Source: Bacteroidales bacterium (GTDB lineage Bacteria > Bacteroidota > Bacteroidia > Bacteroidales > UBA12077). Taken from it: DNA of 64,000 nucleotides. Both the position numbers and the translations under genes were made by a program. Each line of letters opens with the position of its first letter. Position 1 is the first letter of the stretch. The notes under the pieces are model-generated. The model made no database searches. It worked only from the letters and a program-made list of their open reading frames with translations, and was not told the DNA's origin. This document shows, one piece after another, positions 11,326-29,829 of this stretch. Location: the NCBI GenBank assembly GCA_021108325.1, contig JAIORB010000027.1:114321-178320 (forward strand), in the 5' to 3' direction.

Positions 11326-11371
11326 TCATGTTTTTTTTTATTATTTACTTGCGTATTTAAGGTAATTAAAA

Positions 11372-12925: not shown

Positions 12926-14017
12926 ATGGTTTTTACAGATTTATATAAAAAAGCACTAAACTTTGAGTTTTTAACAATAGAAGAAGGCCTTTTGTTGTAT
13001 GAGCAAGCTCCTTTAGAAGAATTGATTTATTTGGGAAATCAATTAAAACAAACTCAGAAGCCCGGTAATATTGTTACATGGCAAATCGACAGAAATATTA
13101 ATATTACAAATGCCTGTATATCGCAATGTAAATTTTGTAATTTTTACAAAAAACCTAATGATAAGGATGTTTATGTAACTACTATTGATGAATATAAAAC
13201 GAAAATTGAAGAACTTTTTAACTTAGGCGGAGAACAGATATTATTACAAGGCGGTTTGCATCCTAAACTGAAACTCGATTTTTATACAAATCTTTTTAGG
13301 GAGTTAAAATCATTGTATCCAAATATTAAGTTACATGCTTTAGGGCCTCCTGAAATTGTTCATATTGCACGACTGGAGAAAAAATCGTACAGAGAAATTC
13401 TGGAATCTTTAATAGATGCCGGATTGGATAGCTTACCTGGTGCAGGTGCCGAAATTTTATGCGATCGTGTTCGAAAAAGTATCTCGCCTGCTAAAGCAAC
13501 TACTCAGCAATGGCTTGATGTTATGCGCGAAGCTCATAAGCTGAATATGGTTACATCAGCAACCATGATGTTTGGGCATGTTGAGACTAAAAAAGAGAGA
13601 ATAGAACACTTAATTGCCATTAGAGATGTGCAATCTGAAAAACCAGAATCATCGCCGGGATTTTTAGCTTTTATTCCATGGCCATTTCAGGATGAAGATA
13701 CCTTTTTACAAAAAGAATTTGGAATAACAAACCAGGTTACATCCGAAGAATATATCAGGACAATTGCAATAAGTCGTATTATGTTGCCAAATATTAAAAA
13801 TATTCAGGCTTCGTGGCTAACTATTGGAAAAGATATTGCTCAAATTTGTTTGCATGCAGGAGCGAATGATTTTGGATCAATAATGATAGAAGAAAATGTT
13901 GTTTCATCTGCCGGGGCGAGTTATAAATTTGATGCCGAAGGAATTCAAAATGCTATTCATGAAGCCGGATTTACTCCACAATTAAGAAATCAGCGGTATG
14001 AATTTATTGAATATTAG
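12926..14017 (+). CDS. mqnC: Cyclic dehypoxanthine futalosine synthase (radical SAM, CofH/MqnC family)
   Basis: DRNINITNACISQCKFC CxxxCxxC motif, LLQGG, LPGAGAEIL, ATMMFGH, FIPWPF, NIQASW, GANDFGSIMIEENVV. Confidence 0.88.
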   Translation: MVFTDLYKKALNFEFLTIEEGLLLYEQAPLEELIYLGNQLKQTQKPGNIVTWQIDRNINITNACISQCKFCNFYKKPNDKDVYVTTIDEYKTKIEELFNLGGEQILLQGGLHPKLKLDFYTNLFRELKSLYPNIKLHALGPPEIVHIARLEKKSYREILESLIDAGLDSLPGAGAEILCDRVRKSISPAKATTQQWLDVMREAHKLNMVTSATMMFGHVETKKERIEHLIAIRDVQSEKPESSPGFLAFIPWPFQDEDTFLQKEFGITNQVTSEEYIRTIAISRIMLPNIKNIQASWLTIGKDIAQICLHAGANDFGSIMIEENVVSSAGASYKFDAEGIQNAIHEAGFTPQLRNQRYEFIEY

Positions 14018-14027
14018 ATAGATTATT

Positions 14028-15536
14028 TTATTGAGGAGAAAGTTCCGTATTGATAAATAAAATGAATTCCGATCCTTTGTTAACTTGTGAATTAACAATT
14101 ATTTTACCCTTATGTTTTTTGATAATTCCATAACTCAATGATAAACCCAGACCGATTCCTTCCCCGACTTCTTTTGTTGTAAAGAATGGTAAAAATATAT
14201 TGTCCGTAATCTTATCTGAAATTCCGCAACCCGTATCTTTAATACTGATTTGTATATAATTACCTTCCAATTTATATTTATTTGCTTCGTTTTTATCAAT
14301 CAAGGATGTCGTAATTGTAATTTTCCCTTTGTCCTTTATGGCATAAATCGAGTTTTTTAAAATGTTCATGTAAACCTGGTTAAGTTCACCATTAAAACAA
14401 TAAATTGATTTTATTTTATTATCATAAATTTTTTCAATTTCTATTTTATCTTTTAAGTTACTTTGCAGCAGCATTAATGTAGCATCTATTCCATCGTGTA
14501 TATTCGATAAAATGCATTTCCCTTTGTTAGTTTGTGTAAAAGTTTTTAAGCCGTTAAATATTTCTTCAATTCGTGCTACTCCCGTTTTAATTACTTCTAC
14601 TGATTGACTTAAGATTGAAACGGTATTATCATATTCGGATTTAACTTTTTTATCATTTGTTAAATCGTTTTTGCTTAGAAGATCGTGCAATACTGAAAAG
14701 TTATAATCTATATTTTGAATACCAACTGAAATAAAATTGAGTGGATTGTTTAATTCATGAGTTATTCCTGCCATAAGAATACCTAACGAAGCCATTTGTT
14801 CACTCTGAATTAATTGTAATTGAGCTTTTTGTAATTTATCAACAGTTTCGGTTAATTTAATATTATTGTTATATAACGAATCTCTAATTTTTTTCAGCTC
14901 ACTATTTTGATTTTTAAATTTTTGTTCATACCTGTGATTTATATTTTTCAAATAAATAATTACCAAATTAACAAACAAAAATACCAACACATGGGCAGCT
15001 ATGTAATAGACTACAAACTGTTTTATTAGTGTGAGTATTTGATATTGCTCTTCAGGCAGATTCAATAAAATAATATCATAGAGAGAAATGATTACTATGA
15101 AATAAATTATCGAAAACCAAAAAGAGAATTTTTCTTTTTTCGCGGAAAATAACAATTGTGGTATAACCGAAATGGCAATTGCAACATACGTGCTGTAAAT
15201 AAAATCTTCTTCCTGGACATAACCAAAAATAGCAGGTACCAATATAAACATAAAAGCAGGAACAACAGAAGTTAAAATTTTTGAAAGTTGTATGAGTTTA
15301 CGCGAAGCAAGAAGAAGATTAAACAGACAGAATATTGCAATAACTATTATTTTATAGGTGTTAAAACCAATTGGTTTATTATTAATATTATTTTCTATTG
15401 CGCTAATAGTAAACACAACAAGCATAATGAAAAATATGATTACATTAATTTTATTTGATAAAATTAATCCTTTATCATTGTTTTCAACAGACTCAGAATC
15501 AATACCAAGATATGAAATGTATTTCCAATACGACAT
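14028..15536 (-). CDS. Multi-TM membrane sensor histidine kinase (NtrB-like)
   Basis: 5-6 hydrophobic segments, coiled coil, H-box GITHELNNPL, N-box NILKNS, DTGCG, GIGLGLS. Confidence 0.92.
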   Translation of the reverse strand: MSYWKYISYLGIDSESVENNDKGLILSNKINVIIFFIMLVVFTISAIENNINNKPIGFNTYKIIVIAIFCLFNLLLASRKLIQLSKILTSVVPAFMFILVPAIFGYVQEEDFIYSTYVAIAISVIPQLLFSAKKEKFSFWFSIIYFIVIISLYDIILLNLPEEQYQILTLIKQFVVYYIAAHVLVFLFVNLVIIYLKNINHRYEQKFKNQNSELKKIRDSLYNNNIKLTETVDKLQKAQLQLIQSEQMASLGILMAGITHELNNPLNFISVGIQNIDYNFSVLHDLLSKNDLTNDKKVKSEYDNTVSILSQSVEVIKTGVARIEEIFNGLKTFTQTNKGKCILSNIHDGIDATLMLLQSNLKDKIEIEKIYDNKIKSIYCFNGELNQVYMNILKNSIYAIKDKGKITITTSLIDKNEANKYKLEGNYIQISIKDTGCGISDKITDNIFLPFFTTKEVGEGIGLGLSLSYGIIKKHKGKIIVNSQVNKGSEFILFINTELSPQ

Positions 15537-15978
15537 TGCAAAAATATTAATAGCTCAGTAATTTACAAAAAATTAACTAATCTAATAAATTTTTAATAAC
15601 GAAAGCATTTTGTTGTCTCTTAAAAAGTTGTGTAATGTAAAAGCCATAATACCTCCTAACATTAATAATAAAAAAAGGTTTATCAAAGTAGGGTAAATTT
15701 ACTTTAGCTTATCATATAAACAAGAGCAATATATACGGCGGAGTTGGTTCAATTTAGAGTTAGGAGTTCAATATATACCTCTAAAATTAAGCCGAGATTT
15801 AAATGTGATGAGCCTGATTCTATGGTAATCTTCTCCGCCTCCTTTTAAAATATAAATTATATAGCATTAGTTTTTCTTCTTCATAGGATTCTAAATAATG
15901 AAAACCCATGCAAATAATAAGTTAGGGTTATTTGTATACTATCGACAGAGTAGATTCTCACAATTTGTAAAGGGTTGG

Positions 15979-15996
15979 CCCTCGCTTCAGCGAGGG
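15979..15996. terminator. Hairpin directly after the PAS kinase stop
   Basis: CCCTCGCT-TC-AGCGAGGG. Confidence 0.5.
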
Positions 15997-15998
15997 TT

Positions 15999-17474
15999 TT
16001 AATTGCTTAAGGGTAAAGTAAAAATAAATTTCGAACCAAAACCAACTTTACTTTCAACCCATATTTTGCTTCCATGTTTTTCAACAAATTCTTTACATAA
16101 GATAAGCCCCAGGCCGGTTCCCATTTCATCTTCCGTGCCTTCAGTTGTGAAGCTTTCGTCTAGTTTAAAGAGCTTTTTTATATCTTTCGGATCGATTCCG
16201 ATTCCTGTATCCCGAATAGAAATTTCTTTAAATCCTTCAATGTCTTTTTCCGTTATTTCGATAGCTCCTCCACGATCTGTAAATTTTAAAGCATTTGAAA
16301 TCAGATTCCTGAAAATGGTTTTAAGCATATTTTTATCTGCTATAGCTTCAGAGTTCTTATTAATCTTATTTGTAAGTAATATTTCTTTTTGTACAGCTTT
16401 TGAATTATATAACGAAAATGTTTCTTCTACAACAGCACAGATGTTTTGAATTTCCGGCTTAAATTTAATACTACCCATTTGTGAGCGAGACCATTCTAAA
16501 AGATTAATTAATAATTCGTAGCCATTTTTAGAGATTTGATATAGGCTTTTGTGAAAATATTTAATTTTTTCCTCACTCATTCGGTCATATCCATAAACTA
16601 ATAGTTGTGATAACCCGATTAATGTATTGAATGGATTTTTTAGGTCGTGTGCAATGATAGAAAAGAATTTATCTTTCGTAACTAAAAGTTTCTGTAGTTC
16701 ATTTTCAACTTCTTTAAGTTTTGTAACATCAGAGTTAATAGCGATTAATCTTATAACTTCATTGTCATTATTTAAAATAGGGGTTAAGGTAGTTTGAATT
16801 CTATATTTTTTACCATCTTTTGAAACAGCATCAGCTTCATAAATTTGAGATTTCTTTTCGGTCAGGGCTTTGTTAAATATTACTTCAATTTCCGGGTTTG
16901 AGCTCGATTCGATAATTGTTTTCCCTTTTTTTGCTAATAATTCCTCATAAGTATATCCGTATAATCGTGTATAACCTTCATTAATCCATTCTATTTCACC
17001 ATTGGGATTTAATATTAAAATTGCATTATCTGTTTCACTTACTACTATGGATAATTTTTCAAGCTCTTTATTGATTTTAGTCAGGTTTTCTGTTTTCTGC
17101 TTTATTTCAAGGTTTTTATTTTGTATTTGTTTGTTTTGCTTTTGCAAAATATTGTTTGCTTTTATTTTGTTTCTAAAGCTTATAATATATAGTATCAGGA
17201 GAATTAAAATTATAATGGAACCGACAATTAATATATTTCTAAAAACTTTTTTATTTTTTATTAAAATATGTGCTTCTCTGGTATATTCAATTGATTTTTG
17301 TGGCGATATTTGCAAATATAATTCTGACAAGTCCATTAAAACATCAATACGGTTAATCCCTGAAGTTTCTTTTAATGCATTTTCTAGGCTGTCAATTTTA
17401 GTTTGTGCAAATGAAGAATAGGAGATTAGAAACAGCAGGAGAATAATAATATGTTTCAAATTGCGAATTTTCAT
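15999..17474 (-). CDS. PAS-domain sensor histidine kinase with a very short extracytoplasmic region
   Basis: Signal peptide, one TM, PAS (EWINEGYTRLYGY), H-box IAHDLKNPF, NLISNALKF, DTGIG, GTGLGL; likely start MKIRN at 17474. Confidence 0.9.
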   Translation of the reverse strand: MKIRNLKHIIILLLFLISYSSFAQTKIDSLENALKETSGINRIDVLMDLSELYLQISPQKSIEYTREAHILIKNKKVFRNILIVGSIIILILLILYIISFRNKIKANNILQKQNKQIQNKNLEIKQKTENLTKINKELEKLSIVVSETDNAILILNPNGEIEWINEGYTRLYGYTYEELLAKKGKTIIESSSNPEIEVIFNKALTEKKSQIYEADAVSKDGKKYRIQTTLTPILNNDNEVIRLIAINSDVTKLKEVENELQKLLVTKDKFFSIIAHDLKNPFNTLIGLSQLLVYGYDRMSEEKIKYFHKSLYQISKNGYELLINLLEWSRSQMGSIKFKPEIQNICAVVEETFSLYNSKAVQKEILLTNKINKNSEAIADKNMLKTIFRNLISNALKFTDRGGAIEITEKDIEGFKEISIRDTGIGIDPKDIKKLFKLDESFTTEGTEDEMGTGLGLILCKEFVEKHGSKIWVESKVGFGSKFIFTLPLSN

Positions 17475-17520
17475 TATATAAATATATAAAAATCTGAGCA
17501 TTCTAGTTAAAAGTATGTAC

Positions 17521-17560
17521 AAAAAAAATAGGTCAAAGTAAACAACCTGACCTATTTTTT
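17521..17560 (-). terminator. Terminator of the M14 peptidase gene
   Basis: AAAAAAATAGGTCA...TGACCTATTTTTT inverted repeat with A/T tracts. Confidence 0.7.
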
Positions 17561-17577
17561 AGCAGATAATATGCGAA

Positions 17578-20205
17578 TTATAATAATATAGAATTAAAAA
17601 GCAGTTTGTATGTAGCAGGCGTAGAGGCCCTGAATTGAGGATTAAAACTAAACAAGACTATCTGTCCCTTCCCTTTTTTTAACCAAACAATTGATGACAT
17701 ATTTCCAATTTTTTCTTCGTTCTCCACATACCCGCTAATCAATATATCTCTTTCAGGAAATGTTCCAATAACTCTTCTGTCAACATCAAAATAAGGTTGC
17801 CAGGTTCTGAAAACAGGACCGCTTCTGTGAAATACTCCAACTTTAGATTGCATACCATAAGTTACAGGATGATTTTTTGTGAGATTAATTTTTAATAGTG
17901 ATCCCGGGCACGAAAATCCTTGTTTTACAATATCCGACGATACATCTTTTACCGGAAATTCAAATTCTTCTATGTTTTTATCATCTAACGAATATTTTTG
18001 TATCCCGGAAAAAAGTTCTGTTGCATTTCTCCAGGCTATTGCTTTTCCTCCATCGTTAATAAATTTTAGAATCTTTTCATATCCTTTTTGTTCCATCCCT
18101 TTCATATATTCAGGCGGATATTTCATATAATAATGTTCATTTTCCGATTTGTAAGAACCATCAATTAATACAGACTTTTTTTCGTCAGGAATTATTAAAA
18201 TATCATAATCTTTACTAAAATCAGTTTTTTGAACTTCTTCAGGCCGTATTGTTTTAAACGGTATATTATATGAGTCTAACACGAATCGTGTCCAACCTGC
18301 ATCCATTGCGTGAAAGTATGTTTCTAACAAAGCAATTCGAGGTAGTTTAAGTTCTCGTTTGTTTATAGTTATATTTTCAGATAAATATTCAGGCGTAAAA
18401 TTTAGCAGTTCAAGAATTTGATTAACATTTTTTGATTTATGAATAATAAAACTTCCAGCCGGAAATAATTTATTATTAAATATATAAGATTCTAAGATTT
18501 GCTCAACTTTTAAGCCATTTTTCATTGCAGTAAAAACAGCCTTATAACTATTATTATTTGTTGCAGATAACAGAATATAGCTGAATTCCGATTCTGAAGC
18601 ATGAAATAGGCTGAATGGAATTTCAAGCTTTGAGAATGCATTTTCAAAGGAATTTTTATTTTCGTTTATTTCGAAAACCTTTACTCCTTTGTGCAATGGT
18701 AATGACCATGAAGTGATATCATAAGGTTTTATTAATTCACCACCCGGGGTATAATGTCGGGCCGGGAAAATTTGTGATTCTAACATTTCTTTAATAAAGG
18801 CCCTGAATGGTTGAGCCAGAGGAACTATAATATCATCAGCATGAAACTTTGTATTATTAATGTGAATATCCTTATCCAACTTATAAACCGAAACACCATG
18901 ATCATTAAGTAAATTAACCAGATTTACAAGTTCGCTCTGGTCATGCTGATTTTTTGGAAAAACATAGAAATAAGGAGGCTGATTAATACCTTTTTCAATC
19001 TCTTTTTTACACATATCATTTCTGAATTGTAATATCTCTTCTTTATATAAAGCTGCTGTTTCCAGGTATGCTTTTGTTGATTCAATTTCGTATTGAATTA
19101 AATCGCTTAATCTCCACCAACCACCTTCCCAGGGTTCAGGCATATTTATACTTATTTTGTATTCGCCCATTCCTTTTCCATAAGCTCCTAACTCATTTGG
19201 CTCAATATATATTGGGGTTGCATATTTTACACTTGCCCCTTCGGATAACATCCCAATGGTATTTTTCCAAATACAAGTTTCTGTAGCACCTGGCCAGTAA
19301 TTGTCAAATAAATAATTTTGTGATATGCCTGTTAAACCTGCTTCTGTCATTTTAGTTATTGTTCTTGAACCAAATATTTTTATCCAGTTCCAGATTCCGG
19401 CATCAATATTTTCTGCAATCGGGTCGTGAGGCGGAGAAATAAAATAACGAGGACCTCTTGATCCCATTTGATGTTTTTCAACCATGATTTGAGGAAACCA
19501 CTCTTTGCTAAATAAATTTGAAATAGCTCTGGTATCACTTTGTGTTAATGCCACAAAATCCCGATTATTATCATGTCCAACATATTTGTGGTATAATCCA
19601 GGCATTGAAGAACCTTCATACTTAGTGCCTTTATATTTTTTATAATGTTCAACAACCATGTCCATTCCGTCGGGGTTATGATTTGGAACAACCATATAAA
19701 CTACATCATCTAACCATGAAATTATTTTCTCATCTTTTGTAGTCAATAATTTATATGCAATTAATGGTAAAGCTTGCGAAGGGCCAACCTCATTTGAATG
19801 CATCGATAAGGTAAATAGAAAAAATGCTTTACCATCTTTTATATAATTATTTTGTTGCTCGTCTGATAATTGATAATTTAATGTTAGTTCCTTATTTATT
19901 TCTTTTAACTTATTAAGATTACTTATATTTTTTTCTGATGAAATAAATGCGGCATACATCGGCTTCCCCATTGGAGATACACCAATTTTTTCCATTTTCA
20001 TCATAGGAGAAACCTGATCAAGTTTTTCTAAATAAGAAATAAGATCTTCGTAATTAAATAACATTCGGTCTGTTCCGGGAACAAAACCAAAATGACTTTC
20101 CGGAGTTGGAATTATTATTTGAGAATAAGAGTTAGAAGTAATCAGAAGGTTAAAAACTAAAATAACTGCGATAAAAATCTTGAAGTTAAGATTATGTTTT
20201 TTCAT
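17578..20205 (-). CDS. Secreted M14 zinc carboxypeptidase-like protein with C-terminal class I GATase-like domain
   Basis: Signal peptide; SMHSNE (HxxE), NPDG, GHDNNRD, EKHQMG; C-terminal DAGWTRFVLD...FNPQFRA. Confidence 0.88.
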   Translation of the reverse strand: MKKHNLNFKIFIAVILVFNLLITSNSYSQIIIPTPESHFGFVPGTDRMLFNYEDLISYLEKLDQVSPMMKMEKIGVSPMGKPMYAAFISSEKNISNLNKLKEINKELTLNYQLSDEQQNNYIKDGKAFFLFTLSMHSNEVGPSQALPLIAYKLLTTKDEKIISWLDDVVYMVVPNHNPDGMDMVVEHYKKYKGTKYEGSSMPGLYHKYVGHDNNRDFVALTQSDTRAISNLFSKEWFPQIMVEKHQMGSRGPRYFISPPHDPIAENIDAGIWNWIKIFGSRTITKMTEAGLTGISQNYLFDNYWPGATETCIWKNTIGMLSEGASVKYATPIYIEPNELGAYGKGMGEYKISINMPEPWEGGWWRLSDLIQYEIESTKAYLETAALYKEEILQFRNDMCKKEIEKGINQPPYFYVFPKNQHDQSELVNLVNLLNDHGVSVYKLDKDIHINNTKFHADDIIVPLAQPFRAFIKEMLESQIFPARHYTPGGELIKPYDITSWSLPLHKGVKVFEINENKNSFENAFSKLEIPFSLFHASESEFSYILLSATNNNSYKAVFTAMKNGLKVEQILESYIFNNKLFPAGSFIIHKSKNVNQILELLNFTPEYLSENITINKRELKLPRIALLETYFHAMDAGWTRFVLDSYNIPFKTIRPEEVQKTDFSKDYDILIIPDEKKSVLIDGSYKSENEHYYMKYPPEYMKGMEQKGYEKILKFINDGGKAIAWRNATELFSGIQKYSLDDKNIEEFEFPVKDVSSDIVKQGFSCPGSLLKINLTKNHPVTYGMQSKVGVFHRSGPVFRTWQPYFDVDRRVIGTFPERDILISGYVENEEKIGNMSSIVWLKKGKGQIVLFSFNPQFRASTPATYKLLFNSILL

Positions 20206-20410
20206 GATTATAAGAATTAAGTATAAATAAGATCCGAAACTTCATGTTAGACTATGTAATTATTTGAAAAGTTTAATGTATGTATAATCTGGCAATAACA
20301 ATTTCATTTTAAAACTGTTTTAAAATTATAAAAATTAAATTACTTTTCTTTTTTTGAATTTAGAATACAAGAATTTTATAATTTTGTGTTTCTTGTTTAA
20401 CTTCGTAAAA

Positions 20411-21304
20411 ATGCAATCTTTTTTTTCAACATATCTTTTACCGTTATCCTTGGCCATTATAATGATGGGAATGGGATTATCTCTTGATAAAAGAGATTTT
20501 AGTAATATAATACGTTACCCTAAACCTGTGCTAACAGGCATAATAAGTCAGGTTTTTATATTACCATTAGTTGCTTTTTTACTGTTTGGATTTACTAGCT
20601 TAAGCCCGGTTGTTAAAGTTGGGTTTATATTAATAACTGCGTGTGCCGGTGGTTCAGCAACAAATGTAATTACCCATTTGCTAAAAGGGAATCTAGCTCT
20701 TTCAATTTCTTTAACAGCTATAAACAGCTTGATTATTCTGGTAACATTACCACTAATAGTAAAACTGGGTTTGATATTGTTTATTGGAGTTGAAAGAAGT
20801 ATTCATTTAAATGTATACGATACTATTTTAAATATATTATTAACTATAATTATTCCAATATTAATTGGAATGTCAATCAGGTATTATTTTTTCCGATTTG
20901 CACTTAAAGCACAGAAACCATTAAAGTTTATTTTACCAACGATATTGTTTTCGGTTTTTATTGTTATGATTTTTTTTAATGACAACAGTTCCCAGAATGG
21001 GATTTATGATTATTTATACATAGTTCCATGGGCTCTATTATTGAACTTTATATCAATGCTTGTTGTTTACTTAATATCAAAGTATTTAAGATTAGGTGGG
21101 AAAAACAATTTTACGATAAGTATTGAAGTTGGATTAAAAAATAGCATAGTAGGAATATATGTTGCAGAAAGCCTACTTAACAATTATGATATGGCTATGG
21201 TATCAGTGGTGTATGGTTCTATTACTTTCTTTTCGACCTTATTATTCGGGTATTTGGCAAAAAGAATAGAGCTTTGGGGATTTGGATATAGAAAATTATT
21301 CTAA
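20411..21304 (+). CDS. Bile acid:sodium symporter family transporter
   Basis: LAIIMMGMGLSL, QVFILP, ACAGGSATN, GNLALSISLTA, IEVGLKN; likely start ATG 20411 (ORF track 20354). Confidence 0.9.
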   Translation: MQSFFSTYLLPLSLAIIMMGMGLSLDKRDFSNIIRYPKPVLTGIISQVFILPLVAFLLFGFTSLSPVVKVGFILITACAGGSATNVITHLLKGNLALSISLTAINSLIILVTLPLIVKLGLILFIGVERSIHLNVYDTILNILLTIIIPILIGMSIRYYFFRFALKAQKPLKFILPTILFSVFIVMIFFNDNSSQNGIYDYLYIVPWALLLNFISMLVVYLISKYLRLGGKNNFTISIEVGLKNSIVGIYVAESLLNNYDMAMVSVVYGSITFFSTLLFGYLAKRIELWGFGYRKLF

Positions 21305-21322
21305 TTTTGAAATTGAAAATAT

Positions 21323-21584
21323 GGGAGCCTCTAATAATTCCTTTGCATCAAGATTTTCATAGTTTTTTAAAGACAATAAAAATTTTTGTAACACTATCGG
21401 GATAATGTAATAAAATTTGAAGCAGTATTTGAAAAACTATGATAACCCTATGGGAACAAAGAAACTAAACAATCTGACTTCGTTATATTTTTTGTGAAAT
21501 AGCTACGGCTATTACAAAAAAATATGCCTTGCATCTTATTCAGTTTCTTTGTTTCTTGAAATAAATGAATTATTAGAGGCTCCC
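21323..21584. mobile_element. Non-autonomous MITE with 18-bp perfect TIRs and ATAT target duplication
   Basis: GGGAGCCTCTAATAATTC at 21323-21340 and its reverse complement at 21567-21584; ATAT on both flanks; internal hairpin 21485-21525; no ORF. Confidence 0.82.
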
Positions 21585-21676
21585 ATATATAAAAAAAACC
21601 GTAAATTACGGCTGTAAGTTAAAATCGCTCTAATTAGATAAATAATTAAAAATCAAAGAATTAAAAATAATTATCA

Positions 21677-22522
21677 ATGAAAACATTAAAATCTTTTATC
21701 AGAAAAACAGCATTTGTTTTATTATCAGGTATGCTAATTGTTTCACTTGTGAATTGTTCAGGTGGCAAAAAAGGTGAGCCTGTTGACGAAACAACATCTG
21801 AAGCTAAGCTTGATAAGGAAGAAATAGAACAAAAAGTGAGAGAAATTGTTTATCCGCTTCCAACAGCCTTTGAGGTTACCGAAATGATTAATAAAATAGA
21901 GGCAAGTTATATTGTTGGCTTATCAAATGAAACAAGTAATGTAGATAAATACTTTACGGATAAAGATCAGGCAATTAATCTTGGTGTATATAGTGCAGAT
22001 TTAAGTTACGCAAGTACATATAATATGAAACAAGATGTAATGAATTATATGGAAGCGTCTGAAAACTTAGTTATGGAGCTTGGTATTACAGGAGCATTTT
22101 CGATTGATTTTGTTGATGAAGTAGAAGCTAATATTGATAATAAAGATGTACTGGTTGATTTAATTACAGGATCTTTTTATGATACGTACGAATATCTTGT
22201 TAAAAACAATAAAGAAGATTTATCTTTATTAGTATTGGCCGGAACATGGATTGAAGCAATGTATATTTCTTGTAATATTTCTGAAATAGTATACAATAAC
22301 CCCGACTTAGTAAAAGTAATATTGCATCAGAAATCTTCGTTAGATAAATTAATTGAATTATTAGCCCCGCACAGCGAGCACGAAACAATTCAATCTGTTT
22401 TAACAGATTTAAAACCAATAAAAGAAACTTATGATAGTGTTGACGAAACAGGTATTACAGAAAGTCAATTAAATAAGATAATTGAGCAATCGATTAGTTT
22501 AAGAAATAAGATTATATTATAA
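21677..22522 (+). CDS. Uncharacterised acidic alpha-helical lipoprotein
   Basis: Signal peptide with lipobox LVNC; no catalytic motif recognised; upstream of the fused ABC transporter. Confidence 0.8.
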   Translation: MKTLKSFIRKTAFVLLSGMLIVSLVNCSGGKKGEPVDETTSEAKLDKEEIEQKVREIVYPLPTAFEVTEMINKIEASYIVGLSNETSNVDKYFTDKDQAINLGVYSADLSYASTYNMKQDVMNYMEASENLVMELGITGAFSIDFVDEVEANIDNKDVLVDLITGSFYDTYEYLVKNNKEDLSLLVLAGTWIEAMYISCNISEIVYNNPDLVKVILHQKSSLDKLIELLAPHSEHETIQSVLTDLKPIKETYDSVDETGITESQLNKIIEQSISLRNKIIL

Positions 22523-22545
22523 CATTTTTGTAATAAATATTTCAG

Positions 22546-22577
22546 GCTCATGTGTAATTAACGCATGAGCTTTTTTT
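22546..22577 (+). terminator. Intrinsic terminator after the lipoprotein gene
   Basis: GCTCATG-N11-CATGAGC followed by a T-run. Confidence 0.7.
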
Positions 22578-22586
22578 ATTCCCTTG

Positions 22587-22690
22587 AATCCGCACAAGCA
22601 TTTAACACTCTGATAGTCACGGGGTGACTTGATGCAAACAGATTACGTAATTGTCATAATATCAATCAGTCACCCCGTGACTTGCGGATT
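22587..22690. repeat. REPIN-like nested inverted repeat
   Basis: AGTCACGGGGTGACT (22615-22629) and reverse complement AGTCACCCCGTGACT (22668-22682); outer arms AATCCGCA/TGCGGATT. Confidence 0.78.
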
Positions 22691-22739
22691 TTAGGTATTC
22701 TATAAATTATTTCTTAAATTTTGTCCAAAATACAAATTA

Positions 22740-25700
22740 ATGAGCGAATCGATACTAAATGCACTTATTCATTTATTTGCGATTGTAGCAAATGTAAATC
22801 CCGGAGGGCTTACAGCTAAGGGGAGGAAAATTGTTGAGATTTATCTTTCGCGATATTTAACAAATGAACTTATACAAGAATACCTTCGATTATTTGATAA
22901 CTATTTAGAATTTTATAAACGCGAGTTAGATCAAGAGGAAGTTAAAGATTTAAAAGATAGTGCATCCTTAATATCTTTCCAAATTTCGAATGTTTGCCGG
23001 CAAATTAAAAAAGGATTGCTTCGCAATGAAAGAGTAATTGTGTTTTTACAAGTGCTGGAATTTGTTTACGAAGATCATGTTGTAACAGAGCAAGAGTTTC
23101 AATTTATAAAAGCGGTAGCAAAATCATTCAGTTTATCCGAAAGCGAATTTAATAATTTTAGGTCATTCATTTTTGAAGGAGATCCGGAAAAACTCGAAAG
23201 CGATAAAGTATTAGTAATTGATAACGAGGTAAAGGAGTGGTCAGATAATCTGGCATGGTTGATGAAAAAGAAAAAAACTCAACAAGGGAAACCATACAAA
23301 CATTTATTCAGGGAAAATCTTTATGGTAAAATTGTTGTTTTTTATATCCAGTCAATTCAATCATTCATTTTTAGATATTTTGGAGAGCTTAATCTTTATA
23401 TAGAGGGTCAAAAAATAGAATATGGACGTCCGTATTTTTTTAATAAAGGAGCAATTATTAAAGGCCCCAATATTAAATCGGTTTATTATTACGATATAGC
23501 TTCGAAATTTGTTTTAGCCTTAGAAGAAGATATAATTACATTTTCCGGTAATGATGTAGAATTTTATTTTAAGAATAGTAAAAACGGAATTCAAAAATTT
23601 AATTTTTCTGAGCAATCAGGTCAGATGATTGCAATAATGGGAGGTAGCGGGGTTGGGAAATCTACTTTGCTAAACTTGCTAAGTGGGAAGCTAAAACCTA
23701 CAGGAGGGAAAATTAAAATAAACGATCATACTATTCATTCCCGAAGCAGTTCTTTGACTGGCTTGATAGGTTTTGTACCTCAGGATGATTTATTATTTGA
23801 AGAGCTCACAGTATATCAAAATCTTTATTATAATGCTAAGCTTTGTTTTAGTGAGTTTACGGAACAACAAATAATCGAAAAAGTAAATTCAGTACTCATT
23901 GATTTGGATTTATATGATGCACAGGATCTTCAGGTTGGAAATCCACTTAATAAGTTTATAAGCGGAGGGCAACGCAAAAGGTTAAATATTGGCCTGGAAT
24001 TAATGCGCGAACCAATGTTGCTTTTTGTTGATGAGCCAACATCAGGATTATCATCTACTGACTCCGAAAAAGTAATAAACTTACTTAAAGAACAGACTCA
24101 TAAAGGGAAACTGGTAATAGCAAATATTCATCAACCATCATCTGATATTTTTAAGCTTTTTGATAAGCTTTGGATACTTGACAAAGGAGGATATCCTATT
24201 TATCAGGGAAATCCTGTCGATGCTATTGTTTATTTTAAAACTGTAACATCGCTTGTAAATGCTGCGGAAAGCGAATGTGCTTGCTGTGGAACAGTTAATC
24301 CTGATCAGATTTTAAGAATAGTTGAGGAGAAAGAGATTAACGAATATGGTAAAGAAACACATGTTCGAAAGACACCACCGGAAACATGGTATTACAGATA
24401 TATTGAAAATATTGAAAAGAAAATAGAACCCAGACATATTGAAGACTCCCTTCCGGATTCTGATTTTAAAATCCCTGATTTTATAAGGCAGTTTAAAGTC
24501 TTTAGCATGAGAAATTTTCTTTCCAAGCTAACCAATAAGCAATACTTATTAATTAATCTTCTTGAAGCTCCTTTACTTGCCCTCTTTTTAGGATTTTTCA
24601 CAAAATATATAACACCTAATGGTTATGTTTTTGGCGAAAATAAGAATTTGCCGATATTCTTGTTTATGGCTGTGGTGGTGGCTGTGTTTTTAGGATTAAC
24701 TGTAAGCGCCGAGGAAATTATTAAAGACAGGAAAATTCTTGAGAGAGAATTGTTTTTGAAGTTGAGTTGGTTTAGTTATATAAACTCCAAGCTTGTTATA
24801 TTATTTGTTATTTCGGCAGTACAAACTTTTTTATACACGCTTATTGGCAATGCAATTCTCGAAATCCACGGAATGCTATTGCCATTTTGGTTAATTTTGT
24901 TTTCTGCTGCTTGTATGGGTAATATTATTGGGCTAAATATTTCTTCAGGGCTCGATTCTGTGATTGCAATTTATATTCTTATACCTTTAATACTTGTTCC
25001 TCAACTGCTGCTGGGTGGAGCAATGATCAATTTTGATGATTTGCATAAAGGGTTTACAAACAAAACATATGTTCCCTTTATTGGTAATTTGATGACCACA
25101 CGTTGGGCTTATGAAGCATTAACAGTAGAACAATTCAAGAATAATAAATTCGAAAAAATATTTTTTGAAGATGAAAAAATTATAAGTAATGCTGATTACA
25201 AAACATCTTTCCTTATTCCCCGGTTACAAAATAAATTAGGACTTTGTATGCGAAGAAAAGATAGTGGAATGGATTCCTTAGCATTAATGAGAGATTTGCT
25301 AATAATAAGCAACGAGTTGGATATTATCGCAATAAATGAAGATTTACCATCTTTCCAGTATATACATCTGTTAAATAATAATGACTTTAGTGAAAGTGTA
25401 ATGGAACAAACCTATCAGTATTTGGTAAGGTTAGATAAAAATCTCTCGGAAGAAGAAAAAAAGGCCAATGAGAGAAAAGATACAAAATATCAACAAATGA
25501 TTGATGAAATGGGTCAAGACGAGTTTGTAGATTTTAAACAAAGATATTACAATAAAAAACTGGCTGACATTGTATTGAACAGAAATGAAATTAACAAAAT
25601 CTATCAAACGCATAAACGATTAATACAAAAGAAGGATCCAATATTTATGGAACCAACTTCAAGTTTTGGGAGAGCACATTTTTTTGCACCTGTTAAAATT

Positions 25701-25865
25701 TTTAATAAAGTTAAAATTGATACACTTTTGTACAATATTTTAATGATGTGGTTCCTTTCCGGAATATTGTATTTAATGTTATTATTTGACCTGTTAAGAA
25801 AAGGATTAAAATATTTGCAATCCTTAAATGTTAAAGAATGGATTTTTAATATCAAACAAGCATAA
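22740..25865 (+). CDS. Fused ABCG/White-type ABC transporter (TerB-like + FHA-like + NBD + ABC2 TMD)
   Basis: Walker A GGSGVGKS, signature ISGGQRKR, Walker B LLFVDEP, NIHQP H-loop, NPDQ and RWAYEAL motifs, ~6 C-terminal TMs; helical TerB-like N-terminus. Confidence 0.88.
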   Translation: MSESILNALIHLFAIVANVNPGGLTAKGRKIVEIYLSRYLTNELIQEYLRLFDNYLEFYKRELDQEEVKDLKDSASLISFQISNVCRQIKKGLLRNERVIVFLQVLEFVYEDHVVTEQEFQFIKAVAKSFSLSESEFNNFRSFIFEGDPEKLESDKVLVIDNEVKEWSDNLAWLMKKKKTQQGKPYKHLFRENLYGKIVVFYIQSIQSFIFRYFGELNLYIEGQKIEYGRPYFFNKGAIIKGPNIKSVYYYDIASKFVLALEEDIITFSGNDVEFYFKNSKNGIQKFNFSEQSGQMIAIMGGSGVGKSTLLNLLSGKLKPTGGKIKINDHTIHSRSSSLTGLIGFVPQDDLLFEELTVYQNLYYNAKLCFSEFTEQQIIEKVNSVLIDLDLYDAQDLQVGNPLNKFISGGQRKRLNIGLELMREPMLLFVDEPTSGLSSTDSEKVINLLKEQTHKGKLVIANIHQPSSDIFKLFDKLWILDKGGYPIYQGNPVDAIVYFKTVTSLVNAAESECACCGTVNPDQILRIVEEKEINEYGKETHVRKTPPETWYYRYIENIEKKIEPRHIEDSLPDSDFKIPDFIRQFKVFSMRNFLSKLTNKQYLLINLLEAPLLALFLGFFTKYITPNGYVFGENKNLPIFLFMAVVVAVFLGLTVSAEEIIKDRKILERELFLKLSWFSYINSKLVILFVISAVQTFLYTLIGNAILEIHGMLLPFWLILFSAACMGNIIGLNISSGLDSVIAIYILIPLILVPQLLLGGAMINFDDLHKGFTNKTYVPFIGNLMTTRWAYEALTVEQFKNNKFEKIFFEDEKIISNADYKTSFLIPRLQNKLGLCMRRKDSGMDSLALMRDLLIISNELDIIAINEDLPSFQYIHLLNNNDFSESVMEQTYQYLVRLDKNLSEEEKKANERKDTKYQQMIDEMGQDEFVDFKQRYYNKKLADIVLNRNEINKIYQTHKRLIQKKDPIFMEPTSSFGRAHFFAPVKIFNKVKIDTLLYNILMMWFLSGILYLMLLFDLLRKGLKYLQSLNVKEWIFNIKQA

Positions 25866-25969
25866 ACAATTCATTTAATGTATTATACAGTAATATTAAT
25901 TTGAGGTAACCAATTTAGATACATTACGTAATAAATTAACATATACTACATTTAAATTAAAATATTGAA

Positions 25970-26479
25970 ATGAGCCTTACATTAGAAAAATCTTCTGACA
26001 CACCGTACATTCATCTTGAAAATGGTTTGATAAAAATGGAAGGGCAACTAATGCCTGAAAATATTTTAATATTTTTTAAACCGGTGGATACATGGATTCA
26101 TAAATATCTTGAAAAACCTGCTGATTTCACAAAAATAGACTTAGACTTTTCTTATTTAAATAGTTGTTCCACAAAGCAAATATGCGATATTCTAAAATTA
26201 TTTAACCAGAAATATCTCGAAGGATTCGATATGAAAATTTATTGGACATATGAAGAAGGAGATGATACGGTTCAGGAAATTGGAGATGATCTGGAATCTA
26301 TGATAGAAATTCCTTTTGAATACACAGTAAAAGAAACTCAAGTTAAAGAACTAACACGCCTTAAAGTTAAAAATAAACTTACAGGTAAAATTGGCGAAAT
26401 TTCTCTTAAATATTGGGAAACCATAAAAAGAAACGGTCATGAACGAGATTTTGAACTTTTAGAAAAGTTTAATCTTTAG
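25970..26479 (+). CDS. siaC: DUF1987/SiaC family regulatory phosphoprotein with C-terminal extension
   Basis: TPYI, MEGQLMPEN..FFKPV..W, YLNSCSTK, IYWTYEEGDDTVQEIGDDL, FEY pattern typical of SiaC. Confidence 0.82.
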   Translation: MSLTLEKSSDTPYIHLENGLIKMEGQLMPENILIFFKPVDTWIHKYLEKPADFTKIDLDFSYLNSCSTKQICDILKLFNQKYLEGFDMKIYWTYEEGDDTVQEIGDDLESMIEIPFEYTVKETQVKELTRLKVKNKLTGKIGEISLKYWETIKRNGHERDFELLEKFNL

Positions 26480-26485
26480 ATCCCC

Positions 26486-27268
26486 TTAAGCACCATTGTA
26501 TCCTCTTACTATTCCTCTTTCAGATGTTTTAATAAAATCTAATATGTAATCTCTTTCGGGAGATTGATTTATTTCTTTTTCGATATACTTTAATGCCTGG
26601 GTTACGTTTTGTTCTTTCACAAAAATTTCCCTGTAAATATCTTGAATTTGTGCAATAGTCTCGTTTGAGAATCCTCTGCGACGCAGACCAACTGAATTAA
26701 CACTAACATAAGATACAGGTTCATGTGCCACAGTTATATATGGTGGAACATCTTTTCGAATGAGAGTACCTCCGGAAATCATAACATGACCTCCAATATG
26801 AACAAACTGATGAATTTGAACATCGCCACTAATTATAGCAAAATCATCAATTGTAATTTCTCCGGCAACGTTAGTACTATTAGAAATTATAATATTGTTT
26901 CCAAGCACACAATCGTGGCCTACATGTACATAAGCCATTAAAAGGCAGTTATCACCAACAACAGTTTTTCCTTTTGAAGCGGTACCTCGATTAACAGTTA
27001 CGCATTCGCGTAAAATTGTATTATCACCAATTTCGGCTGTTGTTTCTTCACCCTTAAATTTTAAATCTTGGGGAATAGCCGAAACAACTGCTCCGGGGAA
27101 GACCTTGCAGTTTTTGCCAATTCTTGCACCACTCATTATTGTTGCATTTGGGCCAATCCATGTACCATCGCCAATTTCTACATTTTTATCGATCCATGCA
27201 AATGCTTCTATTCTTACATTTTTCCCAATTATTGCTTCGGGATGAATATATGCTAAGTCTCTATTCAT
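26486..27268 (-). CDS. lpxA: UDP-N-acetylglucosamine acyltransferase
   Basis: Hexapeptide repeats, PQDLKF, TVNRGT, LLMAYVHVGHDC, VHQF-like IHQF. Confidence 0.97.
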   Translation of the reverse strand: MNRDLAYIHPEAIIGKNVRIEAFAWIDKNVEIGDGTWIGPNATIMSGARIGKNCKVFPGAVVSAIPQDLKFKGEETTAEIGDNTILRECVTVNRGTASKGKTVVGDNCLLMAYVHVGHDCVLGNNIIISNSTNVAGEITIDDFAIISGDVQIHQFVHIGGHVMISGGTLIRKDVPPYITVAHEPVSYVSVNSVGLRRRGFSNETIAQIQDIYREIFVKEQNVTQALKYIEKEINQSPERDYILDFIKTSERGIVRGYNGA

Positions 27269-27279
27269 GATAATTAGTT

Positions 27280-28677
27280 TTATTGTGCTTTTGAAACCTG
27301 GGCCATTAACTCACCTTCCATAACAAGATCATCACCTACAAATGCTTGTCCAAACATATTTACCAATCCACGTCTTATTGGTGAGATAAGTTCCAATCTG
27401 AAAATTATTGTATCTCCTGGAATTACCTTTCTTTTAAATTTTACTTTATCAATTTTTAAAAATAAGGTTTGGTAATTTTCGGGATCTTCTACCTTGCTAA
27501 GAGCTAAAATACCACCAACTTGTGCCATAGCCTCTATTTGCAATACTCCTGGCATAATAGGTTCGTTCGGAAAATGCCCAAGAAAGAAATTCTCGTTCAT
27601 TGTAACATTTTTTATCCCGACAACAGAATTTTCATTCAATTCAATTACTTTATCAATTAAAAGAAAAGGAAATCTGTGAGGTAACAATTCCTTTATTTGA
27701 TTTATATCGTATACAGGCTTTTTAGCCGGATCATATTTTGGAATAGCAATTCTTGATAATTCCTTTTTTATATTATCCTTAATTATTTTGGCTAGTTGAG
27801 TGTTTGCAAAATGCCCCGGACGCGATGCTACAATTTTCCCTTTTATCGGTCGGCCAATTAAAGCTAAATCACCAAGAATATCTAACAATTTATGACGTGC
27901 AGGCTCATTACTAAATCGTAAATCAATATTATTTAAAATTCCTTCTTTAACTTTAACATGAGGTTTGTTAAATAAATCGGCCATTCTATCAAGCTCCTCT
28001 TGCGAAACTTCATTTTCCATTATAACGATAGCGTTTTGTAAATCACCACCTTTAATCAGGTTGTGTTTTAAAAGATATTCCAACTCATGGAAAAACACAA
28101 AAGTTCTTGATGGTGCAATTTCTTTTTCGAAATCATGAGAAGGATGGTATGATGCATATTGATGTCCTAAAACTTTTGAATTATAATCAACCATTACATC
28201 AATAGAAAACTGATCATCAGGATATGCAACAAGTTCAATGTCATTTTCCTCATCGCGAAATACAGTTCGTTCTTTTATAACATAATAATCCTTTTCTGCT
28301 TCTTGTTCAACAATTCCTGCTTTTTTAAGTGCTTCAACATATTTAATTGAACTGCCATCAAGAATTGGAGCTTCCGGTCCGGTAAATTCCATTAATATAT
28401 TATCGAGTTCTAAACCAACCAACGATGCTAATAAATGTTCGATAGTATGAACCTGAACACCATTTTCTTCTAGTGTTGTACCTCGTGAAGTATCAACAAC
28501 GTTATCAGCTATTGGAGTAATAAATGGTTTTCCTTCAAGATCAACACGTTGAATTTTGAACCCATGGTTAATTGGGGCAGAGTGAAATGTTACCTGAACT
28601 TCGTACCCGGTATGTAATCCTTTTCCTGATAAAGAAACAGATTCTTTTATAGTTTTTTGCATTTGTAACATATTCAA
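27280..28677 (-). CDS. lpxC: Bifunctional LpxC/FabZ
   Basis: GKGLHTG, TIEHLL, RHKLLDILGDL (LpxC); LPHRFPFLLID, GHFPNEPIMPGVLQIEAMAQ (FabZ). Confidence 0.97.
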   Translation of the reverse strand: MNMLQMQKTIKESVSLSGKGLHTGYEVQVTFHSAPINHGFKIQRVDLEGKPFITPIADNVVDTSRGTTLEENGVQVHTIEHLLASLVGLELDNILMEFTGPEAPILDGSSIKYVEALKKAGIVEQEAEKDYYVIKERTVFRDEENDIELVAYPDDQFSIDVMVDYNSKVLGHQYASYHPSHDFEKEIAPSRTFVFFHELEYLLKHNLIKGGDLQNAIVIMENEVSQEELDRMADLFNKPHVKVKEGILNNIDLRFSNEPARHKLLDILGDLALIGRPIKGKIVASRPGHFANTQLAKIIKDNIKKELSRIAIPKYDPAKKPVYDINQIKELLPHRFPFLLIDKVIELNENSVVGIKNVTMNENFFLGHFPNEPIMPGVLQIEAMAQVGGILALSKVEDPENYQTLFLKIDKVKFKRKVIPGDTIIFRLELISPIRRGLVNMFGQAFVGDDLVMEGELMAQVSKAQ

Positions 28678-28791
28678 TAAATGTTTAATTTGATCTCAAT
28701 AATAAAAAAAATCGTCGCAAGTTACAAAAAATCGGGTAAATTCCCGTGCAAGAAATTCGAATATATAAAAATTGTAAGATTAAAAAGCTTT

Positions 28792-29829
28792 CTATTTCCC
28801 TTTAAGCTTCTTTAATTCGTTTTCTAATTCTTTGACTCTTTTATATAAGTCAGGAAGTTGTTTGTAAACAATAAAAGACCTTTGAAATTCACGAATGTTA
28901 AATGCCGGAGTTCCCATAACAATACTGCCTTTTTCTTTTATATTATTTGGAATTCCTGCTTGAGGAACTACTTTTACACCATCGGCTATTTGAATATGAG
29001 GGGCAGCTGCTGATTGACCTCCAAACTGACAGTCTTTTCCAATTTTTGTTGATCCTGCAATTCCGACTTGAGCTGCCATAACTGTATTTTCTCCAATCTG
29101 AACATTATGTGCAATTTGAATTAAATTATCAAGTTTAGCGCCTTTTCTAATATAAGTTGAGCCCATTGTAGCTCTGTCGATAGTGCTATTAGATCCAATT
29201 TCCACATTATCCTCAATAATTACATTTCCTAATTGTGGTATTTTACGATAAACATTATTTTCGTCAGGAGCGAAACCAAAACCATCAGAACCAATTATAG
29301 CACCTGCATGTATAATACAATTTTCACCAATAACACATTCGTGATAAATTTTAACACCGGAATTTAGTGTTGAATTCTTTTTAACCGTAACATTATCATC
29401 AATAAAAACATGCGGGTTTAATTTAACATTGTTTTCAACAATAGCATTTTCGCCGATATAAACAAAAGGAGCTATATAAACACCATTACCAATTTTTGCA
29501 GACTCATCAATAAAAGCCAGGGAGCTTGTGCCTTGTTTTACAAGTTTAGCCTGTTCTGCGAGCTCAAGTAGTTTAGCAAAACTTTCATAAGCATTATCAA
29601 CTTTGATTAATGTAGTGGAAACATTTTTTTCGAGCTCAAAATCTTTATTTATTAATACTATTGATGCATTTGTAGTGTATAAGTATTTGGCGTATTTGAG
29701 GTTTGCTAAAAAAGCAAGTGTGCCGGATTCAGCTTCTTCGATTTTAGCTACATTATTTACTTTTACCTCAGGATTTCCAACAATTTCTCCTTTTAAAAAT
29801 TCGGCAATTGATTTGGCTGTAAATTCCAT
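28792..29829 (-). CDS. lpxD: UDP-3-O-acylglucosamine N-acyltransferase
   Basis: GSDGFGF, IPQLGNV, TIDRAT, KLDNLIQIAHNV. Confidence 0.97.
   Translation of the reverse strand: MEFTAKSIAEFLKGEIVGNPEVKVNNVAKIEEAESGTLAFLANLKYAKYLYTTNASIVLINKDFELEKNVSTTLIKVDNAYESFAKLLELAEQAKLVKQGTSSLAFIDESAKIGNGVYIAPFVYIGENAIVENNVKLNPHVFIDDNVTVKKNSTLNSGVKIYHECVIGENCIIHAGAIIGSDGFGFAPDENNVYRKIPQLGNVIIEDNVEIGSNSTIDRATMGSTYIRKGAKLDNLIQIAHNVQIGENTVMAAQVGIAGSTKIGKDCQFGGQSAAAPHIQIADGVKVVPQAGIPNNIKEKGSIVMGTPAFNIREFQRSFIVYKQLPDLYKRVKELENELKKLKGK

Follow-up and report, generated by a model that had tools for sequence, protein, structure and literature searches.

Organisation of the locus

The window considered here is a stretch of 64,000 nt of DNA from a Bacteroidales bacterium, and coordinates given without a label are positions in this window; labels refer to contigs of the same genome (C), to fetched loci (L) and to sampled genomes (G). 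It contains three neighbouring genes, all on the plus strand: a gene for a lipoprotein of an unnamed, all-helical family (21677..22522; 281 aa, with a signal peptide and a lipobox), a gene for an ABCG-like half-transporter of ATP-binding cassette (ABC) type (22740..25865; 1041 aa) and a SiaC-family gene (25970..26479; 169 aa). The list of open reading frames (ORFs) of the window places all three at exactly these positions, in agreement with the co-oriented arrangement reported in a preliminary description of this DNA. On the evidence presented below, we consider it probable that these genes together represent a single copy of a module that is widespread in the Bacteroidota envelope and is composed of an ABCG-like transporter, a lipoprotein partner and a SiaC protein that regulates the transporter.

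Conservation of the gene neighbourhood

Using the 80 best-matching loci (full-length relatives of the transporter with 44-72% identity, from Bacteroidales, Marinilabiliales and Cytophagales), we found a lipoprotein homologue in 55 of the 80; in most of them its gene immediately precedes that of the transporter in the same orientation, 13-350 bp away. The outer flanking genes of these loci vary by lineage and, because the upstream, same-strand pairing is kept while they vary, lipoprotein and transporter form a conserved two-gene unit, a pairing that this synteny establishes. The pair is also carried by the culturable Labilibaculum filiforme, Marinifilum sp. and Perlabentimonas gracilis. A downstream SiaC gene as in the window occurs within the 80-locus set in L009 alone, the closest relative included there. 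In several loci that lack the lipoprotein gene, some or all of SiaC, DUF6272 (SiaB-family kinase, NF038262) and SpoIIE/PP2C genes stand directly beside the transporter gene, these SpoIIE/PP2C phosphatases carrying a HAMP, PAS or RyR sensor domain. The families that recur in foreign loci are transporter, lipoprotein, small secreted protein, SiaB and PP2C, and clustering of the 80 loci revealed no substrate-biosynthesis genes conserved beside the module.

A second survey covered 151 genomes across the order and was made with hidden Markov models (HMMs) built for the analysis, one of which, for PP2C, was unspecific (75 ORFs matched in the genome of the window) and was relied on just where Pfam confirmed SpoIIE. 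It provided 100 transporter loci, each fetched with flanks of 4 kb, out of 55 genomes. The loci are not independent in the phylogenetic sense, and the sampled genomes outside the genus of the window each carry a different family label. The lipoprotein gene is the commonest neighbour of the transporter (adjacent in 46 of the 100 loci and in 35 of the 55 genomes), and a family of small secreted proteins (~140-150 aa) is encoded next to the lipoprotein in 26 loci. SiaC was found in the flanks of 24 loci against 1.95 expected, and within 700 bp of the transporter in 22 loci, from 17 of the 55 genomes, against 0.4 expected, the expected counts being calculated from each genome's own SiaC number and size. 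SiaB (DUF6272/NF038262) is present in 20 loci and usually accompanies the adjacent SiaC genes, and PP2C stands beside several. The arrangements of SiaC vary and may be convergent (SiaB>SiaC> <ABC), co-directional (SiaB>SiaC>ABC>lipoprotein) or divergent.

The transporter family is present in 68 of the 151 genomes, with one to five or more copies in each, and SiaC is likewise present in 68; both are found in 61 genomes, one only in 7 and the other only in 7, and neither in 76 (odds ratio 95). A gene-neighbourhood survey had been suggested in the preliminary description, which proposed that lipoprotein, transporter and SiaC make up one module: in both surveys the transporter proved to be recurrently, and not rarely, beside the lipoprotein (55/80 and 46/100 loci) and beside SiaC/SiaB, and the adjacency statistics and the phyletic pattern support the proposal. 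They also demonstrate the link between SiaC and transporter.

A tree of 102 transporters has two main clades. Clade I (36 rows) comprises the SiaB/SiaC-linked types and the types with lipoprotein plus small secreted protein, including those encoded on C81 and C61 of the same genome as the window, and clade II (66 rows) holds the window transporter together with members that mostly have the lipoprotein alone or no partner, apart from the window/L119 pair and a few that are linked to SiaC/SiaB (L143, L162, L210). The SiaC tree places the transporter-linked SiaCs in dedicated clades that mirror the clades of the transporter.

Three paralogous loci in the same genome

The genome encodes three full-length paralogues of the transporter, in the window, on C81 and on C61, and all three adjoin a SiaC gene; with 16 SiaC genes among ~3,300 genes, the chance that an immediate neighbour is SiaC is ~1%. 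The window arrangement is lipoprotein > ABC > long SiaC, that of C81 is SiaB > SiaC > < ABC < small secreted protein < lipoprotein, and that of C61 is GAF-PAS-PAS-PP2C > SiaB > SiaC > ABC > lipoprotein > small secreted protein. C61 is thus the complete module and the better archetype, and the window locus, from which the small secreted protein is absent, is a reduced form with an orphan SiaC. Among the genes checked at the window locus, C61 and C81 there is no GGDEF domain, the flanking genes of foreign loci having not all been scanned for it.

The C61 genes occupy 10958-19129 of that contig (L219:2958-11129) on one strand and encode, in this order, a SpoIIE phosphatase of 869 aa, a SiaB of 191 aa, a SiaC of 126 aa, a transporter of 1020 aa, a lipoprotein of 303 aa and a small secreted protein of 149 aa. 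Small secreted proteins of ~140-150 aa are encoded at C81:5293-5715, C61:18680-19129 and C33:3774-4220 and have no Pfam match. On C33 the lipoprotein and small-protein pair is without a transporter and adjoins uvrA; a fourth transporter beside this pair was considered and rejected, as the 943-aa neighbour is UvrA.

Altogether the genome has 16 SiaC-family genes and five SiaB-family genes, which carry six DUF6272 domains. Because the SiaC genes number 16 and the SiaB genes 5, most SiaC genes have no kinase gene alongside. One SiaB-family protein, encoded at C20:29986-31119, is a double-domain protein of 377 aa, and there are tandem SiaC pairs on C43 and C54.

The transporter

The preliminary description had assigned to the 1041-aa protein a nucleotide-binding domain (NBD) placed before the transmembrane domain (TMD), the motifs of eukaryotic ABCG/White transporters and two extra N-terminal domains, and all three features were recovered. 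Pfam finds ABC_tran (PF00005, 104 bits) at residues 285-435 and ABC2_membrane (PF01061, 77 bits) at residues 583-796, so that the NBD precedes the TMD. The ABC ATPase domain (residues ~285-500; 23592..24239, plus strand) has all the catalytic motifs: Walker A GGSGVGKST, Q-loop Q348, signature SGGQ 408-411, Walker B D431-E432 and H-loop H464 show no variation in an alignment of 12 members, and the same is true of the IHQP, NPxD and RWAYEA motifs. With its ATPase motifs intact, the protein is predicted to be catalytically competent.

The best NCBIfam model is TIGR00955, 'pigment precursor permease' (White/ABCG), which matches residues 291-806 with 241.3 bits, below the subfamily (equivalog) cut-off of 736 bits. 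A profile of the family searched against the PDB gives Cdr1/Pdr5 and ABCG8/5/1/2 as the best solved relatives, with alignments that run through the NBD and transmembrane helices TM1-TM5, ABCG2 being aligned over residues 75-562. On these comparisons of sequence, the transporter is a distant bacterial relative that stands outside the eukaryotic ABCG subfamily.

The ABC-2/ABCG-type membrane domain (residues ~583-759; 24486..25016, plus strand) is delimited by PF01061, by hydropathy and by the profile alignment with ABCG2, and hydropathy places TM1-TM5 at residues 603-621, 637-655, 685-703, ~709-730 and 741-759. It is followed by a hydrophilic insert of ~240 aa (residues 760-999; 25017..25736, plus strand), in the position of extracellular loop 3 between TM5 and TM6, and then by TM6 (residues 1000-1018, from hydropathy) with a basic cytoplasmic tail (residues 1000-1041 with TM6; 25737..25865, plus strand) that has 5 K/R against 1 D/E. 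Because the ATPase is cytoplasmic and the C-terminal tail obeys the positive-inside rule, the insert is predicted to be periplasmic, and its length is conserved in the family since the matches span query residues 1 to ~1030. Compared with the PDB by sequence, segment 760-999 gave nothing significant. A PadR match of this segment (E 0.001, 70 residues) was marginal and was judged to be due to chance. The protein does not have the type VII ABC plan, in which there are four TM helices and a large periplasmic domain separates TM1 from TM2; it has six TM helices and its big loop lies between TM5 and TM6. The domain architecture, the ATPase motifs, the six predicted TM helices and the predicted periplasmic loop are all clear from the sequence and the models.

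The two extra N-terminal domains form a regulatory head. An AlphaFold2 (AF2) model of residues 1-285, made from 43 sequences (pLDDT 83.8), contains a seven-helix domain at residues 3-146 and a beta domain at residues ~157-241. The helical part (residues 1-146; 22740..23177, plus strand) is a predicted TerB-like cytoplasmic domain: TerB (PF05099) matches weakly at residues 66-141 (20.9-22.8 bits vs a gathering cut-off of 24.4), the same family is matched by 32 of 43 transporter family members at E<=0.01 (best E 1e-6), and Foldseek against the PDB matches the domain with 2h5n (PG1108; TMt 0.57-0.60).

The beta domain (residues ~157-260; 23208..23519, plus strand), modelled by AF2 with a pLDDT of 93-95 over residues 190-250, is FHA-like. 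Almost all of its top 50 fold matches in the PDB are FHA domains, with probabilities up to 0.99 and weak E-values of 0.02-0.4, including CEP170, Rad53 FHA1, MEK1, KIF1A, TIFA and Bdellovibrio DgcB, and the sole non-FHA hit, 2h5n, concerns the helical domain. The Pfam FHA profile (PF00498) has no match in the transporter. Conserved positions are G196, S205, Y213, G215, N222-G223 and G237 (the window protein has E222), and the residue after G196 varies between Q, E, N, K and R; the window protein has K, and the paralogues linked to SiaC have Q, E or N. The canonical FHA Arg and the His of SxxH were not found in the domain, S205 being kept; since this Arg and His are lacking, we label the domain FHA-like and not a demonstrated phosphothreonine reader.

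The lipoprotein

The product of the first gene contains MKTLKSFIRKTAFVLLSGMLIVSLVNC, in which the lipobox LVNC comes after a signal peptide; the lipobox residue Cys27 is invariant in 43 lipoprotein homologues. The protein has no Pfam or NCBIfam match and is, as first described, an uncharacterised lipoprotein without a named family. The AF2 model (pLDDT 84.5, pTM 0.78) is all-helical with 12 helices; because a fold search of the PDB gave nothing significant (best E 0.41, TM-score 0.26), we put the protein in no fold family, and comparison with the PDB by sequence gave nothing either. A profile search of 1.84 billion representatives found 3,191 clusters (at 50% identity) at E<=0.001 and 1,635 at E<=1e-30. 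Homologues among the matches listed are typically 260-320 aa long, and of the best 120 listed, all those named by their source go under 'hypothetical protein', without a Pfam domain in any.

The SiaC-family protein

The 169-aa protein matches PF09345 (SiaC, DUF1987) with 92.6 bits against a cut-off of 24.5, which bears out the identity originally given to it, and scores 72.9 bits with NF038265, for which the equivalog cut-off for Pseudomonas aeruginosa SiaC is 150 bits. The SiaC-family domain (25970..26326, plus strand) has Ser at the putative phospho-acceptor position (YLNSCS), and alignment with P. aeruginosa SiaC (6kko/6k4f) puts this Ser on T68, which in P. aeruginosa lies within the peptide LLYLNTSSIK (PMC7647112). 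The T68-equivalent residue is Thr or Ser in all 16 SiaC paralogues of the genome.

A C-terminal extension of ~50 aa follows (26327..26479, plus strand); it is conserved in L119, which is from a genome of the same genus, and in L009, and has no family in Pfam. In the SiaC tree this conserved extension marks a 'long SiaC' clade (support 98%) with six members, of which those of the window, L119 and L009 are transporter-linked. At L093:1069-3501 (genome G033) and in L091, from another family, a long SiaC gene lies directly 3' of the gene for a flippase of Wzx/MurJ type (Polysacc_synt) and is accompanied by another SiaC gene, a short one, which hints that long SiaCs may pair with other envelope exporters too.

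Intergenic elements and flanking genes

The intergenic gaps in the window are ~100-220 bp. Immediately 3' of the lipoprotein gene lies an intrinsic-terminator-like hairpin with a T-run (22544..22579, plus strand), whose 12-pair stem at 22544-22572 has a fold energy of -16.9 kcal/mol. L119 and L009 have a hairpin and T-run in the same position 3' of the lipoprotein gene with another stem sequence, and because the position is kept despite the different stem the structure looks functional; it may provide read-through attenuation or may separate the transcription units of lipoprotein and transporter. Many other lineages have a lipoprotein-transporter gap of just 13-80 bp, too short for a terminator.

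Between the terminator and the start region of the transporter gene is an inverted-repeat element (22584..22690, no strand assigned) resembling repetitive extragenic palindromic (REP) sequences, with arms AATCCGCA...AGTCACGGGGTGACT. The palindrome AGTCACGGGGTGACT has 24 matches when both genome strands are counted, and therefore occupies roughly 12 genomic sites; the element, with its flanks AATCCGCA/TGCGGATT, is found on contigs C1, C3, C5, C11, C12, C13, C15 and C67, and on others. Since the corresponding 94-bp spacer of L119 is without it, the REP-like element is a window-specific insertion. The terminator and the REPIN that had been noticed between lipoprotein and transporter, as the hairpin at 22544-22572 and the inverted repeat at 22584-22690, are thus both real. 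Promoter sites of sigma-70 type show no excess (32 vs 29.5 expected in shuffled sequence), the three intergenic regions contain no exact Bacteroidota TAnnTTTG box, and no Rfam family was found over 20000-27500.

Upstream, between an SBF-family gene and the lipoprotein gene, a 268-bp element (21323-21590) has perfect 18-bp terminal inverted repeats GGGAGCCTCTAATAATTC and a fold energy of -89 kcal/mol; as the same spot in L119 lacks it, it looks like an insertion similar to a miniature inverted-repeat transposable element, and a short hairpin related to it is present at 41658-41706. A further terminator-like hairpin, CCGTAAATTACGG (21597-21613), has its T-run on the minus strand, where no minus-strand gene ends; it is kept in L119 and may act as a terminator in both directions for the SBF-family gene upstream. 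Downstream, on the minus strand and convergent to the SiaC gene, 26486-29829 encodes LpxA, a fused LpxC-FabZ (465 aa) and LpxD, as read from the translations alone. These lpxA, lpxC-fabZ and lpxD genes do not recur among the neighbours of the transporter in the 80 clustered loci.

Proposed mechanism and alternative explanations

The core of the proposed module would be a homodimer-type ABCG-like half-transporter with a TerB-like and FHA-like head and an enlarged last outward loop. The lipoprotein would be its periplasmic partner, most likely docked on the loop of residues 760-999, and would receive, deliver or gate the cargo, which judging by the transporter family is probably lipid or some other hydrophobic component of the envelope. 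SiaC would be the cytoplasmic regulator, its Ser/Thr phosphorylation state deciding on the binding of its target as in Pseudomonas SiaABC; the presumed target would be the TerB/FHA-like head of the transporter and not a diguanylate cyclase, and binding, in whichever direction it controls the transporter, would modulate ATPase activity or assembly. For the orphan long SiaC of the window, phosphorylation would have to come in trans, from one of the five SiaB kinases of the genome. We infer, as the preliminary description did, that SiaC state may control export, and the data suggest that a known biofilm switch is re-used here to control a membrane transporter. A more specific version can be put forward only tentatively, namely that a SiaC-type phosphoprotein gates an ABCG-type transporter directly through the TerB/FHA-like head, with the lipoprotein (and the small secreted protein where present) as a new periplasmic acceptor.

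Several observations weigh against the regulated module. As the FHA-like domain is without the canonical Arg and His, phospho-dependent docking is not to be assumed; the phospho-site position of the window SiaC is Ser, not Thr; neither a SiaB kinase nor a PP2C/SiaA phosphatase is encoded at the window locus; and a conserved terminator lies between the lipoprotein and transporter genes. Adjacency of SiaC is rare in clade II of the transporters, where it is limited to the window, L119, L009 and a few others (e.g. L143, L162, L210). Three of the six long SiaC members have no transporter within 1.5 kb and one adjoins the Wzx/MurJ-type flippase, and 43 of the 100 surveyed loci have none of the four partner genes within 4 kb.

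Part of this evidence would fit an account in which lipoprotein and transporter cooperate alone and the 169-aa long SiaC is a lineage-specific, accidental neighbour that regulates something else or nothing. Window-type orthologues have a downstream SiaC just in L119 and L009, the long SiaCs of three other genomes are not beside the transporter, the 16 SiaC genes against 5 SiaB genes mean that many SiaCs are scattered, and the window locus has no kinase or phosphatase of its own. We nevertheless regard this account as unlikely, because all three transporter paralogues of the genome are adjacent to SiaC against the ~1% expected per gene, because the triad persists in L009, whose transporter is 72% identical, and in G106, with 85% identity of the transporter and 78% of SiaC, and because the family-wide statistics of SiaC adjacency are extreme. 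A further account, in which the three genes are functionally unrelated neighbours, is highly improbable and strongly disfavoured: the terminator and REP element between the first two genes, the gaps of ~100-220 bp and a promoter signal no higher than that of shuffled controls (32 vs 29.5) would agree with it, but in Bacteroidales, Marinilabiliales and Cytophagales alike the pair is retained amid differing outer flanks, and the adjacency and phyletic statistics oppose it as well.

The flow of information might also be reversed, the ABC protein and lipoprotein (with the small secreted protein where present) serving as an envelope sensor or mechanotransducer, without export of any cargo; SiaC would read the ATPase and conformational state of this complex and relay the signal to other targets. 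A large periplasmic domain with dedicated periplasmic partners recalls mechanotransmission of the FtsEX or MacB type, there are no substrate-biosynthesis genes conserved beside the module, and the ratio of 16 SiaC to 5 SiaB genes may indicate a network and not one-to-one pairs. Such a sensor is nonetheless rather improbable, given that the fold is ABCG/ABC-2, whose known members are exporters, that the periplasmic insert lies between TM5 and TM6, unlike that of type VII proteins (TM1-TM2), and that Pseudomonas SiaC is the output-binding element of its switch (PMC8457831).

Comparison with known systems

In P. aeruginosa, SiaABCD consists of the PP2C phosphatase SiaA, the kinase SiaB, the DUF1987 phosphoprotein SiaC and the diguanylate cyclase SiaD (PMC7647112, PMC8457831). 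There, SiaC has to be unphosphorylated to bind and activate SiaD, which is encoded next to it, and the authors put forward modulation of adjacent proteins as a role of DUF1987 proteins (PMC8457831). The window locus resembles this system in its SiaC-family domain with Ser/Thr at the T68-equivalent position and, as proposed here, in a small phosphoprotein acting on an adjacent-encoded protein; a SiaB kinase and a PP2C are present at C61 and a SiaB at C81, and both kinds are found in many foreign loci. It differs in that the constant neighbour is an ABC transporter, with no diguanylate cyclase among the genes checked in the window, C61 and C81, in that the window locus itself has no kinase or phosphatase, and in that its SiaC is below the equivalog cut-off (72.9 vs 150 bits), has Ser in place of Thr and carries the 50-aa C-terminal extension.

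The exporter Rv1747 of Mycobacterium tuberculosis, as far as the cited accounts describe it, has the order FHA-FHA-NBD-TMD and is controlled via its FHA domains, through phosphorylation by PknF and by Rv2623, a small cytosolic protein (PMC3138270, PMC5549992). The analogy with Rv1747 that had been drawn for the window transporter holds at the level of the fold, since FHA domains are all that the second N-terminal domain matches in the PDB fold search. To the extent of those accounts, both are single-polypeptide half-transporters in which the NBD precedes a TMD of ABC-2 type and the cytoplasmic head has an FHA fold, and Rv1747 combines Ser/Thr phospho-signalling with a small cytosolic binding protein, a combination that we propose for the window protein. 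Compared with Rv1747 so described, the window protein has one FHA-like domain without the phosphothreonine-binding Arg and His, preceded by a TerB-like domain, and the associated kinase is SiaB (anti-sigma-kinase-like), not a Hanks kinase, and is associated with the transporter only at the paralogous loci. On the window side, the 240-aa periplasmic loop and the dedicated lipoprotein are also to be set against Rv1747.

With ABCG/PDR transporters (ABCG2, ABCG5/G8, ABCG1, Cdr1, Pdr5) the window protein shares the reverse domain order, the IHQP, NPxD and RWAYEA-type motifs and an alignment over the NBD and TM1-TM5, whereas it is bacterial, has an N-terminal regulatory head, scores 241 against the required 736 bits with TIGR00955 and has a loop of ~240 aa before TM6 in place of ~70 aa. 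LolCDE-LolA, MlaFEDB-MlaC, LptB2FG-LptC and FtsEX-EnvC are similar by analogy only, as inner-membrane ABC ATPases genetically paired with a periplasmic or lipoprotein partner, and by this analogy the pairing suggests hand-over of a hydrophobic cargo or mechanotransmission. The window ABC protein differs from these machines in its ABCG/ABC-2 fold, which is not of type VI/VII, and neither sequence nor fold searches found any similarity of the lipoprotein to LolA/B, MlaC or LptC.

Within the library searched, we found no paper on a SiaC-type switch wired to an ABC transporter, on the lipoprotein family or on DUF6272 in any context, in keeping with the initial remark that no characterised Bacteroidota system of this composition was known to its author. 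Relatives are known for the individual parts (the SiaABC switch, the FHA-ABC protein Rv1747 and the ABCG exporters), and for the combination we found no published description.

Significance

To our knowledge, it is only for Pseudomonas that a SiaABC-type partner switch has a known output, which is a cyclic di-GMP cyclase. If the proposal is true, the module would be the first partner-switching system with a transporter as its output, and would represent the principal Sia-type output in Bacteroidota. In the sample of one Bacteroidota order, 61 of the 68 SiaC-bearing genomes carry the transporter family and SiaC adjacency is ~50 times that expected by chance. Genetic analysis is feasible, because culturable relatives (L. 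filiforme, Marinifilum sp. and P. gracilis) carry the pair. SiaC proteins are a large family of orphan signalling proteins, with 16 genes in this genome alone, and the transporter would give them a candidate target. The traffic of lipids and lipoproteins to the outer membrane of Bacteroidota is only partly understood, and the module would add to it an unstudied envelope machine, in which an ABCG-like transporter with a periplasmic domain is joined by a lipoprotein family of ~3,200 clusters, nameless and of no known fold.

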